Positions 41,673 through 51,595 of a stretch of DNA of 64,000 bases are shown here, piece after piece. Source of the DNA: a bacterium (lineage in GTDB: Bacteria; Sysuimicrobiota; Sysuimicrobiia; Sysuimicrobiales; Segetimicrobiaceae). The notes below the pieces were generated by a model. It saw only the letters and a program-made list of their open reading frames with translations. It ran no database searches and was not told the origin of the DNA. Within the stretch, counting starts at the first letter, position 1. The number at the start of each line of letters is the position of its first letter. The position numbers were made by a program, and so were the translations under genes. The stretch spans positions 1,505-65,504 of the forward strand of contig DASYXS010000097.1 of the NCBI GenBank assembly GCA_035934535.1, read 5' to 3'.

Positions 41673-42494
41673 CTACACGCCGCTGAACACGCTGAACCCG
41701 CCGTCGACGGGCACGACCACGCCGTTGACGAACCGGCTGCCCGGCCCGCACAGCCAGAGCACCGTCCCGATGAGGTCGTCCGGCTCGCCGAACCGGCCGG
41801 CCGGCGTGTGCTCGATGATCCGGCTGCCCCGCGGAGTGAGGCTTCCGTCCTCGTTGGTGAGCAGCCGCCGGTTCTGATCACCGATAAAGAAGCCCGGCGC
41901 GACGGCGTTGACCCTGAGGCCCTCGCCGTGCCTGCGCGCCAGGTCCACCGCGAGCCACCGCGTCAGATTCTCGATCGCGGCCTTGGCCGCCGAATACGCC
42001 GGCACGCGCGTCAGCACGCGCTGGGACGCCATCGACGAGATGTTCACGATGCTCCCCTGCCGCGCCGCGGCCATCGTGGGCCCGAAGACCTGGATCGGGA
42101 GCAGCGTGCCGGTGAGGTTCAGGTCGACCGCGGTGCGCCACGCCTCGACCGGCAGATCGAACACCGACCCGCCGTTTGCCAGCGTCGCCTGCGGCAGGTT
42201 GCCGCCGGCCGCGTTCACCAGAATATCGACGCGCCCCCACCGCCCGACGATCGCGTCCCGCGCGCGCGCGAGCGCCGCCGCGTCGAGCACGTCGGATGCG
42301 ACCGGCATCGCCTCGCCGCCGGACGCGGCGAGCTGCGCCGCCACCGCCTGCGCGCGCTCGAGCCGCCGCCCGAGGATGGCGATCCGCGCGCCGGCCGCCG
42401 CGAGCCCGCGCGCCATCGCGGACCCCAGCGCACCGCTCCCGCCGGTGACGACCGCGACCCGGCCGCGCAGATCGAAGAGCTCCGCGGGCTTCAT
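41673..42494 (-). CDS. SDR family oxidoreductase (mannonate / 5-keto-gluconate / KduD-like class)
   Basis: The start is ATG 42492-42494 (MKPAELFDLRGRVAVVTGGSGALGSAM), an ATGA overlap with the upstream stop. The catalytic motif is YSAAKAAIENLT. It is the last gene of the 9-gene operon. Confidence 0.88.
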   Translation of the reverse strand: MKPAELFDLRGRVAVVTGGSGALGSAMARGLAAAGARIAILGRRLERAQAVAAQLAASGGEAMPVASDVLDAAALARARDAIVGRWGRVDILVNAAGGNLPQATLANGGSVFDLPVEAWRTAVDLNLTGTLLPIQVFGPTMAAARQGSIVNISSMASQRVLTRVPAYSAAKAAIENLTRWLAVDLARRHGEGLRVNAVAPGFFIGDQNRRLLTNEDGSLTPRGSRIIEHTPAGRFGEPDDLIGTVLWLCGPGSRFVNGVVVPVDGGFSVFSGV

Positions 42495-44005
42495 CCGCGC
42501 GGTCCCGCCGCGCGAGACTCCGGCTCCGGGGCGCCGAACGCCGACAGGTGGCGGATGAAATGGCGCTCCACGTTGGCGTCGTAGGCGTCGGGGTTGGCGC
42601 GCAGCAGCGCCTGCAGCCGCGCGCCGTACGCGGCGAGCGCCGAACCGAACGTCACGTGGAGCATCTCCCGCGCGTCGAAATTGTCCAGGAGCGACGCGAG
42701 GTCGCGGTCCGCCGCCGCCGCGGGCGACGGCGCCCGGGAGGCGACCGCCGACACGTGGTAACTGGCGCGGTCCTGCTCGTACCGCTCGTGCGCCAGGACG
42801 TAGATCGCGCGCAACAGCGCGGGGTCGAGCGGCGCCGCGGTCCGCAGCGCCTCGAGGTAGCTCGTCCCGGCGGTCTTGATGTGCGCGAGCGTGCCGGCCC
42901 GGCGGCCGAAGGCGCCGTAGACGCTCAGCTTGTCGGATCCGGAATGCAGGCTCAGTTTGTACGGTCCGAGACGGCGCGCGATCGCCGCGTGGACCGCGAC
43001 GTCGGCGTCGAACGCGGCCGGGTCGCCGATGTAGTCCACGCCCTTCTCGAAGCGGCCGACGAAGCGCGGGGCCAGGCTGACCCACTCGACGCCGAGGCGG
43101 CGCAGCTCGGTGGCGACGTAGGCGTGCTGCACCGGCGTCGTCGGGGTGTCCGTCTCGTCGACGGAGATCTCGACTTCGACGCCGCGGTTCCGCGCGCGCA
43201 GGTGCCGGTACAGGGCGGCCACGTGCGCCACCGCCCGTCCGTACTTGACGGCCGCGCGCGCGATGCCGTCCTCGTCGTACGCGAGGGCCTCCCGGTCGAG
43301 CTCGAGCGCGCGCCCGCGGTACCGCTGCCACATCCGGTCGCGGCGGTCGTCGAGCCGGTCCCACGGCAGCGCGTCGAGCGCGGCGGAGATCTCGGCGGCG
43401 GGCCGCGAATCCGCGGACGGGTCCACGTGCGCGCCCGGATCGAACGTGAAAAAGGTGTACCCGGCCGCAAGACACGCATCGACGTCGCCGGTGGTCTTGA
43501 GGTGATCCGCGTCGGCGCCGAAGCCGTCGCGCCACCCTTCCATAAAGACGCCCCAACACGCGTCGGTCAGCACCTGTCCGGGCGTGCGCCGGGTTCGCTC
43601 CATCTCCCGGATCGACTGCTGCGCGAAGATCGGCGCCACCCCCGCCCCTGCCTCACGCAGCGCCCGGACGTGCCCCGGCGTGGCGAGACCCAGGCGATCC
43701 CCGAACCCGAACGATCGCGCGAGGCCCAGCGGGCGGGGCAAGAGCCACGGCAGAGCGCGCTGCAGCACGGCGAGGCTCCGTGCGCCGGCGGGCCCGATGC
43801 GAAGCCACCGCCCCTCGAAGGAACTCGTCTCCCCCTCGAGATCCCGCAGCGCCGGCGGGGGACTCCCGGCGAGCGCGACCACGCGATACTCCGTGGTACC
43901 GCGCGCGAGGCCGACCTCCGCCTCGCCGATCTGGACCACGGAGCGCGGGCGGACGTCCAGCCCCGGGACGGACTGCAGTCGCGTCATCGATCGGCCCCCC
44001 CGCAT
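42491..44005 (-). CDS. uxaE: Tagaturonate/fructuronate epimerase (UxaE) family protein
   Basis: 504 aa with blocks FGFGDRLGLATPGH, IFAQQSIREMERTRRTPGQVL and GFGADADHLK. These match my memory of the UxaE TIM-barrel family. ATG 44005 shares one base with the upstream stop. ATG 43987 (MTRLQSV, preceded by GGGGGGG) is an alternative start. Confidence 0.6.
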   Translation of the reverse strand: MRGGRSMTRLQSVPGLDVRPRSVVQIGEAEVGLARGTTEYRVVALAGSPPPALRDLEGETSSFEGRWLRIGPAGARSLAVLQRALPWLLPRPLGLARSFGFGDRLGLATPGHVRALREAGAGVAPIFAQQSIREMERTRRTPGQVLTDACWGVFMEGWRDGFGADADHLKTTGDVDACLAAGYTFFTFDPGAHVDPSADSRPAAEISAALDALPWDRLDDRRDRMWQRYRGRALELDREALAYDEDGIARAAVKYGRAVAHVAALYRHLRARNRGVEVEISVDETDTPTTPVQHAYVATELRRLGVEWVSLAPRFVGRFEKGVDYIGDPAAFDADVAVHAAIARRLGPYKLSLHSGSDKLSVYGAFGRRAGTLAHIKTAGTSYLEALRTAAPLDPALLRAIYVLAHERYEQDRASYHVSAVASRAPSPAAAADRDLASLLDNFDAREMLHVTFGSALAAYGARLQALLRANPDAYDANVERHFIRHLSAFGAPEPESRAAGPRG

Positions 44006-50387: not shown

Positions 50388-51595
50388 TTGAGCTTGTTCG
50401 CGCCGACCTTCTGGTCCCAGAGTGTAAACGCCTGCACCAGCTTGTCCGGATCGAGCGGAATCTCGATCGGCCGCGTCTTGATCAGATCGTCGAACGACGC
50501 GCGCCGCACCGGCCCGACCTTGTCCTGGCTGTCCTTCGGCGCCATGCTGAGCGCGACGCCCTTGACGGCCGGTCCGGGATAGAAGTAGCCGGTGTCGTAG
50601 GTTTTCGCCTGCTGGTCGGGCCGGAGCACCCACGCGATCAGGTCGAGCACGAGGCCGAGCATCTCCGGCGAGTTGCCCTTCGGCACGCAGATGTACTGCG
50701 TATCCGCGATCAGATGCTCGTTCGCGAACGCGAACGCGCCGAAGTTCGTCGGCACCACACCGAGCGCGCGGACGTTGAGGTCCCAGCCCATCGTCGAGGC
50801 CGCGATCGTGCGCGCGCCCTGACCCAGTTCCTGGAACGTGCCGGCCGTGCCGGTCGGGTAGTACTGGATGTATTGGCCGAGCTGCTGATAGTACGGCCAC
50901 ACCTTCGTCCAGGACTGCGGGTCGCGCGGATTCGCCTCGCCGAGCAGATACGGCAGTCCCATCAAGAAGCTGCGGCCCGGACCGGAGTTGGCCGGCCGCG
51001 CGTAGATCAGCTGGCCGGGGTTGCTCTTCGCCCACGCCAGCAGGTCTTGGGGTGTCTTCGGCGGGTTCGGCAGCTTGGCCGGGTTGTACGTGAACGTCGG
51101 ACCGTAGTTGCCGAAGACGTCGAGGATGCCGTAGCCCTGGGCGAGCCCCTGGGCCTTGGGCTGAATGTAGTTCCCGATCAGGTTGGGCCACTTCGTCTGG
51201 AAGTCAGGGAGCAGCGGCTGCCAGATCTTTTGCACGATGCCCGCGGACAAGGCGTCCGACCCCGTGAGCACCATGTTGATCTGCAGCTGGTTCGCCTGCT
51301 GCTGCGCCAGGATCTTCGACGGCAGCTCGGGCGCCGTCGCCTGCTGGTAGCTCACACCGCTGACGTACTGGTGGTGCGACCCGACGTAGTCTTCGATGAT
51401 GGCCTTGGTCAGCTGCAGCTGACCGGCGACGTCGATGATGGTCAATTGCAGTGGACGCGACGGCATCGGCGGCAGCGCCATTCCCGCCGCGCGTGCGATG
51501 CCGGGACGGCCGGCCAGGAGCCCCGACCCCGCCGCCGCGGCGGCCCCGGCCCCAATGAGGAACGTCCTGCGGTCAAGAGAATGCAAATTGCTCAC
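50384..51595 (-). CDS. ABC importer substrate-binding protein (family 1) with Tat-type signal
   Basis: The start is set at GTG 51593-51595, preceded by GGGGGGTGG (VSNLHSLDRRTFLIGAGAAAAAGSGLLAGRPGIARA, a twin-arginine motif). It is the first gene of the 9-gene operon. Confidence 0.8.
   Translation of the reverse strand: MSNLHSLDRRTFLIGAGAAAAAGSGLLAGRPGIARAAGMALPPMPSRPLQLTIIDVAGQLQLTKAIIEDYVGSHHQYVSGVSYQQATAPELPSKILAQQQANQLQINMVLTGSDALSAGIVQKIWQPLLPDFQTKWPNLIGNYIQPKAQGLAQGYGILDVFGNYGPTFTYNPAKLPNPPKTPQDLLAWAKSNPGQLIYARPANSGPGRSFLMGLPYLLGEANPRDPQSWTKVWPYYQQLGQYIQYYPTGTAGTFQELGQGARTIAASTMGWDLNVRALGVVPTNFGAFAFANEHLIADTQYICVPKGNSPEMLGLVLDLIAWVLRPDQQAKTYDTGYFYPGPAVKGVALSMAPKDSQDKVGPVRRASFDDLIKTRPIEIPLDPDKLVQAFTLWDQKVGANKLK

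Follow-up and report, generated by a model that had tools for sequence, protein, structure and literature searches.

A two-module locus around a predicted nickel-pincer cofactor-dependent epimerase, probably for acid sugars, in an uncultured soil lineage

Thermotoga-type catabolism of hexuronates and gluconate runs through UxaC, UxaE, UxuB and UxuA (Rodionova et al. 2012, as cited in PMC7583248), and a LarA homolog that acts in it, GntE, has been shown to be a D-gluconate 2-epimerase (PMC7583248). Here we describe a related locus in a 64-kb stretch of bacterial DNA, the whole of which we call the window. Nine genes at 41673-51595, all on the minus strand, encode a solute-binding protein (SBP), an ATP-binding cassette (ABC) ATPase, two permeases, an enolase-superfamily enzyme, an IolB-family cupin, a LarA homolog (LarAH), UxaE and a short-chain dehydrogenase (SDR). 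Directly before them on that strand come larE, larB and larC, the genes for synthesis of the nickel-pincer nucleotide (NPN); the first-pass annotation of this DNA had left these three out of its account. The locus is a composite of two modules around the NPN epimerase, and we consider it very probably an NPN-dependent acid-sugar locus. As a whole, it is best explained as a two-module catabolic locus that depends on an NPN epimerase and serves an acid sugar, a hexuronate or hexonate being the likeliest. We put the probability of this reading at roughly 0.45.

The Thermotoga-type route and the window locus both combine UxaE with a fructuronate/mannonate oxidoreductase and an NPN-dependent epimerase of the LarA family, leading toward 2-keto-3-deoxygluconate (KDG), and counterparts of the window's UxaE and SDR that are 58-65% identical are found in UxaC-containing clusters. 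The larE-larB-larC context also places the cluster near the GntE-type LarA homologs of hexuronate/gluconate clusters. However, the window has an IolB/KduI cupin instead of UxaC and an enolase resembling glucarate dehydratase (GlucD) instead of UxuA. Its LarAH belongs to group 22 and is without the GntE signature, whereas GntE falls in groups 19 and 20; its importer is Pot/Phn-like, and neither a kinase nor an aldolase is nearby. The first-pass annotation had proposed an uncharacterised route. Our literature search for this gene combination returned nothing specific, and no paper was found that links the gene set to a characterised pathway, but the locus varies a known theme, that of UxaE with a LarA homolog, and has precedent.

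The lar locus of Lactiplantibacillus plantarum provides a second comparison. There too a larA-family gene is clustered with larB, larC and larE, and the catalytic His pair and the cofactor-binding Lys, His and Arg are conserved in LarAH. The window differs in that LarAH lies within a predicted sugar-acid operon, in that its sequence is too remote for sequence or profile searches to reach solved LarA, and in the type of its LarE.

The window is about 72% G+C throughout and, because of this, longest open reading frame (ORF) calls were misleading. We replaced them with calls based on codon-position GC profiles and start-codon context, and assigned families by Pfam and NCBIfam models with score cut-offs in bits. 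These calls and models bore out the nine minus-strand genes and the enzyme and importer families that the first-pass annotation had named. The minus-strand run extends upstream past 51595, through larC, larB, larE, an EamA transporter gene and a second SDR gene (SDR2), to 56377. All features given below are on the minus strand unless marked otherwise.

LarAH (44005-45405) scores 498 bits, against a cut-off of 400, with NCBIfam NF052515, "nickel pincer cofactor-dependent isomerase, group 22", and only 25 bits with Pfam Lar_N. Over its full length it can be aligned with Rxyl_2987 and Bcoa_1745, the references for group 22 (Desguin 2020). Sequence and profile searches against solved structures gave no match, and only fold comparison tied LarAH to LarA. 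An AlphaFold2 model built with 33 homologs had a predicted local distance difference test score of 87 and a predicted template-modelling (TM) score of 0.86. When it was compared with the PDB by Foldseek, all 14 matches at E<=0.001 were LarA-family structures with probability 1.00, the next match having E>0.01. TM-scores to these structures were 0.40-0.55, with 13-18% identity in the structural alignment; we attribute the low TM-scores to domain-hinge differences between the model and the structures. Residues R82, H114, H179, K192 and H208 are invariant in the 33 homologs, down to 49% identity, and match those listed for group 22 in Desguin's dataset. By motif and spacing, not by residue-level superposition, they equal R75, H108, H174, K184 and H200 of LarA, which supply two catalytic His residues, the cofactor-binding Arg, the tethering Lys and the Ni-ligand His; the H179-K192-H208 spacing is that of LarA plus a 3-residue insert. 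We conclude that LarAH is a LarA-superfamily member of group 22. The adjacency of larE, larB and larC, together with the NF052515 match, indicates that it is an NPN enzyme, presumably, as its family suggests, a 2-hydroxy-acid epimerase. An NPN-dependent aldo-keto-reductase family described in 2026 is unrelated to any gene in the locus.

The three cofactor genes all exceed their NCBIfam cut-offs. LarE, the sulfur transferase of NPN synthesis (53786-54661; TIGR00268, 299 bits against 150), has the P-loop SGGVDS at residue 29 and a CxxC...C motif formed by C99, C102 and C179. This motif is that of the catalytic [4Fe-4S] type found in Thermotoga, as opposed to the sacrificial single-Cys enzyme of L. 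plantarum (PMC9283937), and by this motif the window LarE groups with the former. LarB, the nicotinic acid adenine dinucleotide carboxylase/hydrolase (52995-53789; NF033503, 266 bits against 175), is encoded by a gene that is GTGA-coupled to larE. LarC, the nickel-inserting cyclometallase (51755-53014), has its LarC1 and LarC2 domains fused (Pfam Ni_insertion, 422 bits; NCBIfam LarC1, 178 bits, and LarC2, 142 bits). Among the genes of the locus, none was recognised as encoding a nickel transporter.

Is the nine-gene set a fixed unit? We compared genome loci (80 returned for LarAH, one genome per species) and metagenome loci (80 returned for the enolase). The full order larE-larB-larC-SBP-ATPase-permease-permease-enolase-IolB-LarAH-UxaE-SDR, with tight junctions, recurs in two soil contigs, L081 from the metagenome-assembled genome GCA_035945995.1 and L082 from a forest-soil assembly. 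The same three cofactor genes stand directly upstream, on the same strand, in both of these and in a third contig, L173. Partial versions of the set are present on contigs cut at one end (L001, L086/L087 and L095), and amino-acid identity is 75-91% overall. A single close relative with the set was found among the 80 genome loci for LarAH; among the 80 enolase loci, L095 alone shares it and L098 and L136 share it partly. Wide recurrence of the whole nine-gene set was rejected on these counts. One sharer among 80 species-representative loci indicates that the set is restricted to one uncultured soil lineage.

Within that lineage, blastn colinearity and gene tables define a 5.5-kb indel cassette (46217-51747) that comprises a spacer and the genes for the SBP, the ATPase, the two permeases and the enolase. 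The window, L001, L081 and L082 carry the cassette, whereas L173, L174 and L175 lack it; in these three the order is EamA, an unknown gene, larE, larB, larC, IolB, LarAH, UxaE and SDR, followed by the same downstream genes as in the window. Positions 54681-51748 of the window correspond to 6262-9150 of L173, and 46216-41000 to 9187-14394; the cassette ends fall inside gaps of 159 nt and 50 nt. The LarAH proteins of the three cassette-less contigs are 87% identical to that of the window, nearer than those of L081 or L082, which makes loss in that lineage the simpler history, as judged from identity and not from a tree. A separate arrangement bears on the same question: in L136, a 76%-identical enolase gene stands directly before genes for a like importer (46-60% identical) in a gene order different from that of the window, with a GntR-family regulator gene further upstream and an amidohydrolase gene after the permeases. 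The indel in L173 and the arrangement in L136 together argue that importer and enolase are a functional pair and that IolB-LarAH-UxaE-SDR is a self-sufficient core tied to larEBC.

The cupin gene (45402-46199) is the first of the four-gene core. Its product scores 267 bits with Pfam KduI (PF04962) and 245 bits with NCBIfam TIGR04378 (cut-off 205), and its closest solved structure is the IolB-like 2QJV (3e-39). The same cupin family holds IolB of myo-inositol catabolism and KduI, which with KduD serves pectin and alginate catabolism; both isomerise aldose to ketose at the aldehyde end of a uronate-type acid, and the window cupin is by family an aldose-ketose isomerase predicted to act on uronate-type substrates. 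The window differs from those systems in having neither iol partner genes nor a KduD-type reductase, its core SDR being of the mannonate-oxidoreductase type. No iolG, iolE, iolD, iolC or iolJ was found among the annotated genes of the 64-kb window, or within 10 kb on either side of the cluster in L081, L082 and L173.

UxaE (42491-44005), of the tagaturonate/fructuronate epimerase family, matches Pfam UxaE (PF16257) at 444 bits over profile positions 50-473 of 475; among solved structures it matches 9LHU at 363 bits and the Cohnella UxaE, 6IL9, at 290 bits. As called it has 504 amino acids. The closest public protein, P0001, which is 100% identical over 99% of the query, has 498, a length consistent with a start at ATG 43987. 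The core SDR, SDR1 (41673-42494), is encoded by the last gene of the operon and is of the D-mannonate oxidoreductase (fructuronate reductase) type, with 374 bits for NCBIfam PRK08277 (cut-off 281) and 156 bits, against a cut-off of 339, for the KduD model. In the four loci examined for UxaE homologs (58-69% identical; L083, L084, L085 and L088), a gene for an SDR of 273-277 amino acids, 64-74% identical to SDR1, was always next to or very near the uxaE gene. The pair stands alone in L083, with UxaC in L085, with a TRAP transporter, UxaC and another LarA homolog in L084, and with a CUT1-type importer and sugar-phosphate-isomerase-like barrels in L088. In the two UxaC loci, identities to the window proteins are 58-61% for UxaE and 64-65% for the SDR. 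We considered the LarA homolog of L084 as a group-22 member; this was not supported, since it gave no qualifying match from the window LarAH. UxaC is absent from the window lineage, and the UxuB-type SDR is always adjacent to UxaE. Given a pair that recurs, twice beside UxaC, and the strong UxaE match, conversion of tagaturonate to fructuronate to mannonate is the most economical reading. The first-pass annotation had presented three isomerase/epimerase types as an oddity of the locus. We find this overstated because UxaE and its SDR form a widespread, tightly coupled pair that lies by UxaC in two contexts.

The enolase-superfamily enzyme (46250-47503; Pfam MR_MLE_C, 189 bits; MR_MLE_N, 43 bits) falls in the glucarate-dehydratase-like subgroup. 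With the TIGR03247 glucarate dehydratase model it scores 161 bits against a cut-off of 829, and it stays under every other equivalog cut-off too, so that "GudD-like" would hold at the subgroup level only. It shares the two-domain enolase fold families with GlucD, ManD and the gluconate and galactonate dehydratases, as well as a GlucD-like KxK motif (K174-x-K176), D/E/N metal ligands (D204, E230 and N253) and a D-H dyad (D277 and H304), but unlike those enzymes it belongs to a family without a named function. The motif offsets are as expected from the range of the phmmer alignment to E. coli GlucD (1EC7), without superposition, and the catalytic positions were matched to what we take to be the corresponding GlucD residues. 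The nearest solved structures, 4IT1, 3VC5, 3VDG and 2OQH/4DYE, bear putative or generic depositor names and are structural-genomics targets. The enolase search returned 8000 proteins below 1e-30, and in the 80 metagenome loci (L089-L168), on contigs of 48-72% G+C, the family is 71-91% identical, unusually tight conservation for an enolase-superfamily family without an assigned reaction. From its subgroup and motifs, the enzyme is probably an acid-sugar dehydratase.

The importer genes precede it. The periplasmic SBP (50384-51595; Pfam SBP_bac_8, PF13416, 89 bits) has a Tat signal with the twin-arginine motif RRTFL at residues 9-13. Its NCBIfam matches (YnjB-like, SfuA/ThiB and aminoethylphosphonate [AEP] binders) are weak and far below the cut-offs, and a sequence search against solved structures found no relative. 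The ATPase (49263-50387; Pfam ABC_tran, 123 bits), with a C-terminal TOBE domain (TOBE_2, 35 bits) of PotA/PhnT/UgpC-like type, is best matched by PhnT2 (365 bits) and PotA (352 bits), both under cut-off. Permease A (48339-49256) and permease B (47500-48342) both match Pfam BPD_transp_1, the former with weak AEP/Mo/sulfate/PotB-like NCBIfam matches. An SBP of PF13416, one TOBE ATPase and two permeases are also the components of the PotABCD, PhnSTUV and Fe3+/thiamine importers, which supply the best NCBIfam matches; these matches and the RRTFL motif agree with the earlier placement of the importer in that branch with a Tat-signal SBP. The window importer differs from them in scoring below the cut-offs, in the Tat export of its SBP and in its genetic tie to the enolase gene. 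The PotABCD family scores are not reached (PotA, 352 against 482; PotB, 70 against 348; PotC, 68 against 326; no PotD match for the SBP), and the shared architecture does not imply a substrate class.

How might these proteins work together? We infer substrates and step order from the families, gene order, conservation, modularity and cofactor-gene adjacency described above. Module 1, the core, is kept with or without module 2 and consists of EamA, larE-larB-larC, the IolB-like isomerase, LarAH, UxaE and SDR1. Module 2, the 5.5-kb cassette between larC and iolB, contributes the Tat-exported SBP, the Pot/Phn-like ABC importer and the probable GlucD-like enolase-superfamily dehydratase. An aldohexuronate would enter by the ABC importer where that is present, and possibly by EamA in the core. 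The IolB/KduI cupin would then isomerise it to the keto-uronate in place of UxaC; E. coli KduI has been proposed to replace UxaC on galacturonate and glucuronate (PMC3578941). UxaE would epimerise tagaturonate to fructuronate, and SDR1 would reduce the keto-uronate to the aldonate, D-mannonate. Next, NPN-dependent LarAH would invert C2, giving for example D-gluconate, a step with a counterpart in GntE as a gluconate/mannonate 2-epimerase (PMC7583248). In cassette carriers, the enolase-type dehydratase would turn the aldonate into KDG, with the remaining steps left to a KDG kinase and an aldolase from other parts of the genome. Relatives that lack the cassette would phosphorylate the epimerised aldonate (gluconate, for example) to bring it into metabolism. 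The specific order of steps and their substrates are tentative, and we think it doubtful that the scheme holds in all its details.

This scheme keeps the central idea of the first-pass annotation, that stereo-inversions funnel an acid sugar to a keto-deoxy intermediate, which remains the best reading. Its remark that kinase and aldolase are lacking also stands: we found no KDG kinase or KDG aldolase among the annotated genes of the 64-kb window, a few short stretches of which lay outside the scan. Its description of IolB as lying outside an iol context is right as well, there being no other iol gene among the annotated window genes. Nothing favors the cyclitol substrate that it had offered as an alternative.

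Several points weigh against a hexuronate or hexonate route of this kind. The substrates of all five enzymes are assigned from sequence families and context. A C2 epimerase ahead of a dehydratase that erases C2 would be needed only if the dehydratase is stereospecific, which we assume. The importer type is not known for sugar acids, its SBP is without a characterised relative, and the locus encodes no regulator, nor did a dedicated one turn up among the other annotated window genes. The enolase family sometimes adjoins M20 peptidases, an amidohydrolase or an aminotransferase, hinting at a nitrogen-containing substrate. The cupin passes the equivalog for 5-deoxy-glucuronate isomerase (TIGR04378) and scores only 22 bits for KduI proper. 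Many group-22 genes of Rubrobacteraceae adjoin lutABC lactate-utilisation genes. Lastly, the GntE signature, E, V, A and H at LarA positions 175, 176, 358 and 359 (PMC11770544), is missing from LarAH: positions 175-176, which follow H179 in LarAH numbering, are T-A, and in the group-22 references T-D. This places LarAH outside the GntE family, but a similar reaction is still possible.

Perhaps the substrate contains nitrogen? An amino-aldonate, an N-acyl sugar acid or an opine- or Amadori-like conjugate could be imported by a polyamine/aminoethylphosphonate-like ABC system; the enolase would have this compound as its direct substrate, leaving the carbon skeleton to the IolB-LarAH-UxaE-SDR core. 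The nearest NCBIfam families of the importer (PhnT2, PotA and the AEP permeases) and the weak likeness of the SBP to YnjB, ThiB and AEP binders point this way, but all these matches are far under the family cut-offs. Importer and enolase family occur together in two arrangements, that of the window and that of L136 with its amidohydrolase gene. Nearly all of the 80 metagenome enolase loci are without IolB, LarAH and UxaE, and typical neighbors of the family are SDR genes just upstream in many loci, GntR regulators, additional enolase-family members and M20 peptidases, the last of these in L169 and L171. In L098, a 6.4-kb metagenome contig, the gene for an 82%-identical enolase shares the contig with two genes on the opposite strand, one for a class I/II aminotransferase and one for an IolB-family protein (63% identical); the aminotransferase gene sits between the enolase and IolB-family genes, making this a second, rearranged co-occurrence of the enolase and IolB families. 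Against a nitrogen-containing substrate, no deaminase, aminotransferase or amidase is encoded in the window cluster, and orthologs of UxaE and SDR1 occur in UxaC clusters of the ordinary kind. Moreover, the SDR gene that often precedes the enolase gene and the SGL-type lactonase gene that follows it in one context (two near-identical contigs) form the pattern of an aldonate dehydratase in an oxidative sugar route, that is, of plain aldose oxidation. We therefore consider a nitrogen-containing substrate unlikely, and prefer a plain hexuronate or hexonate.

Two further alternatives change the chemistry and keep the acid sugar. In the broader one, LarAH would be a Ni-dependent C5 epimerase of free hexuronates (the pairs may be, for example, glucuronate/iduronate, mannuronate/guluronate or galacturonate/altruronate) or an epimerase of a hexonate pair with no known interconversion, and the GlucD-like enolase a uronate or aldonate dehydratase without a described counterpart; with the IolB-like cupin, they would make up an undescribed route from uronate to KDG, independent of UxaC and UxuA. 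We regard this as rather improbable. A more specific version has LarAH invert C5 of a free hexuronate, the enolase convert the product to a 4-deoxy-5-keto-uronate, the cupin isomerise that to 2,5-diketo-3-deoxygluconate and the SDR reduce it to KDG, with UxaE on a side branch. Each of these reactions is typical of its family class: LarA acts at the hydroxyl carbon alpha to a carboxylate, the enolase superfamily abstracts an alpha-proton, and PF04962 includes KduI. The enolase gene also stands directly before the IolB gene, and L098 pairs the two families too. However, L173 retains IolB-LarAH-UxaE-SDR without the enolase, and hence the substrate of the cupin cannot depend on that enzyme. In addition, SDR1 groups with the mannonate oxidoreductases rather than KduD, the scores of the cupin favor IolB over KduI, and a literature search found neither an enolase-type uronate dehydratase nor a free-uronate C5 epimerase. 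We give this version little credence beside the scheme in which the cupin acts first and the dehydratase last.

A different question is raised by group 22 itself, which the 2020 paper that defined the LarA groups lists as of "unknown function" (PMC7583248); a literature search for a later functional assignment found none. Does LarAH perhaps racemise a small 2-hydroxy acid such as lactate or glycerate, lying near larEBC for cofactor supply only, so that its position carries no pathway meaning? In the 2020 survey, group 22 accounted for 20 of 354 genes, and its neighbors (Desguin 2020, Table S1) included SDRs (45%), IlvD/Edd dehydratases (30%), TRAP transporters (30%), sugar kinases (25%) and UxaC (20%) (PMC7583248). 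Our own search found several thousand sequences related to LarAH; ORFs within 6 kb of the best 80 genome matches were clustered, and representatives of the largest clusters were annotated. The lutA gene lay near the group-22 gene in 22 of these 80 loci and lutB and lutC in 17 each, mostly in Rubrobacteraceae and usually divergent, which agrees with a small acid. So do the next-closest orthologs of LarAH, the nearest ones outside the lineage: in L002, L003 and L005 the gene directly abuts larEBC, and in L006 larE is present before the contig ends. No sugar-acid gene was detected beside any of these four, the one exception being L003, where a gene of the mannitol-dehydrogenase family lies downstream of larC. 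In the window, on the other hand, larAH is set between iolB and uxaE by a GTGA and a TGATG junction, an order that all relatives examined retain, whether or not they have the cassette. At other group-22 loci there are UxaA-type dehydratases (7 of the 80), sugar kinases (FGGY, 5) and TRAP and TTT carboxylate transporters, along with SDR (16), GntR (12), IclR (10) and Zn-ADH (9) genes. The dehydratases that neighbor group 22 belong, depending on lineage, to three unrelated families, UxaA-type, IlvD/Edd and enolase-superfamily, and this fits a pairing in which an epimerase feeds a dehydratase. A small-acid racemase thus seems improbable for the window, and we retain an epimerase of hexonates or hexuronates as the preferred role of LarAH.

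The Rubrobacteraceae loci show a pattern of their own, in which the LarA homolog is encoded head to head with lutABC and is often flanked on its other side by an IclR-DAO-GCV_T block or a sugar ABC system. Loci with this pattern include L015, L019, L026, L030, L033, L037, L042, L045-L046, L050-L051, L054, L056, L059, L071 and others. Group-22 LarA in Rubrobacteraceae may serve a different substrate.

Finally, IolB could have its canonical function, the core then serving to process 5-deoxy-glucuronate or a similar deoxy-uronate derived from inositol or some other cyclitol. The TIGR04378 score favors this, but it is hardly probable, as the iol partner genes were not found among the annotated window genes or in the flanks searched and the cupin's invariant partners, LarAH, UxaE and a mannonate-oxidoreductase-type SDR, play no part in inositol catabolism.

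The junctions between the nine genes bear on how the locus is expressed. As read from the sequence, six of the eight are ATGA, GTGA or 1-nt overlaps: SBP/ATPase (GTGA), permease A/permease B (ATGA), permease B/enolase (GTGA), IolB/LarAH (GTGA), LarAH/UxaE (TGATG, a 1-nt overlap that becomes a 17-nt gap if UxaE starts at ATG 43987) and UxaE/SDR1 (ATGA). The enolase and IolB genes are separated by 50 nt with a GGAGG ribosome-binding site. At ATPase/permease A there is a 6-nt gap (TAG GCCGGG ATG), and an overlap is impossible there because the two genes share one frame; the first-pass annotation, which had every junction but the 50-nt gap overlapping, was wrong on this one. Short start/stop overlaps occur elsewhere in the window too (30001-30004, 15052-15055, 53786-53789 and 55625-55628). 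Being common in this genome, they indicate operon organisation and are nothing unusual by themselves.

The larC-SBP spacer is 159 nt long. In an alignment of this spacer with its counterparts from L081, L082 and L001, the sole run of invariant columns is the block GACGGTCATCATAACGTGGG (51649-51668), which, from its conservation and position, could be a promoter or operator of the importer module. A GC-rich hairpin at 41635-41660, 13 nt 3' of the SDR1 stop, with the stem GGAGCCAGUC...GACCUGGCUCC in the minimum-free-energy fold, is a possible terminator; it is weak (z only -1.9, without a U tract), and the consensus scan made no call there. Scans of the window for promoter and terminator consensus sequences gave background-level results, and an Rfam search of the window found no riboswitch or other RNA family. 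Co-directional genes, short junctions and synteny in relatives would fit one operon of the nine genes, whereas the 159-nt spacer with its conserved block and the 50-nt gap coincide with the indel boundaries. The earlier claim of a single co-translated unit is sound as to common direction and to the order and tight junctions kept in L081, L082 and L001, whose proteins are 77-91% identical to those of the window. It is too strong in that two modules are split by the 159-nt and 50-nt gaps and that importer and enolase are missing from a close relative.

At the upstream end, SDR2 (55625-56377; Pfam adh_short, 199 bits; NCBIfam PRK07231, "glucose 1-dehydrogenase" subfamily, 241 bits against 215) is encoded by the first gene of the minus-strand run, ATGA-coupled to the EamA gene. 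It marks a second indel, since 55582-56437 of the window has no counterpart in L173; L173 has an unannotated 214-amino-acid gene between EamA and larE. The EamA/DMT-family membrane transporter (54633-55628; Pfam EamA, two domains, 115 bits) is found at the equivalent position in L173 with 76% identity and is a possible transporter of a substrate or metabolite for the core locus. A gene of the phosphoenolpyruvate-mutase/isocitrate-lyase family diverges upstream of the SDR2-EamA-lar run.

At the downstream end, between SDR1 and the next gene, a 24-codon ORF on the plus strand (41535-41609), opposite to the operon, encodes the hydrophobic peptide MPEWLVWVLAGIVVTAAVINSGGK, its start preceded by AGGAGGTGA, a strong ribosome-binding site. 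L082 has the coding sequence of a nearly identical peptide at the matching place, and the product may be a small membrane protein. The gene that follows, of the NAD-dependent epimerase/dehydratase family (40250-41164), is met by a converging hydantoinase B/A (oxoprolinase-like) pair at 36298-40253 on the plus strand, an arrangement conserved in L082, L086 and L173.

Elsewhere in the window, a second enolase-superfamily gene (13949-15055) is overlapped at one end by an SDR gene (13216-13956) and at the other by one of the polysaccharide-deacetylase family (15052-15912); the three form another putative acid-sugar module at 13216-15912. At 28787-35668 lie genes for a MacB-type ABC efflux pump (FtsX/MacB_PCD and ATPase), an HlyD-family adaptor and an OEP/TolC-family outer-membrane factor, then a histidine kinase and a response regulator. 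An outer-membrane factor of this kind hints at a diderm envelope in the lineage, whose nearest relatives with a label are named "bacterium," "uncultured Firmicutes" and "Bacillati bacterium ANGP1." A 565-amino-acid ORF at 57924-59621, with good coding-type GC bias and no Pfam match at E<=1e-5, adjoins an M28 peptidase gene (59519-61315).

Group 22 is among the larger NPN-enzyme groups listed without a function, and the locus provides a lead for finding one. The context here is unusually explicit and tightly coupled, the cofactor genes lying to one side and the genes for the cupin, UxaE and mannonate-type reductase to the other, which leaves only a few hexonates and hexuronates as candidate substrates. 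Attention is also drawn to an enolase family that is strongly conserved (72-82% identical in widely differing genomes) yet without an assigned reaction and that travels with a specific ABC importer. The clean presence or absence of the cassette in close relatives is a natural experiment on the modular assembly of catabolic operons.

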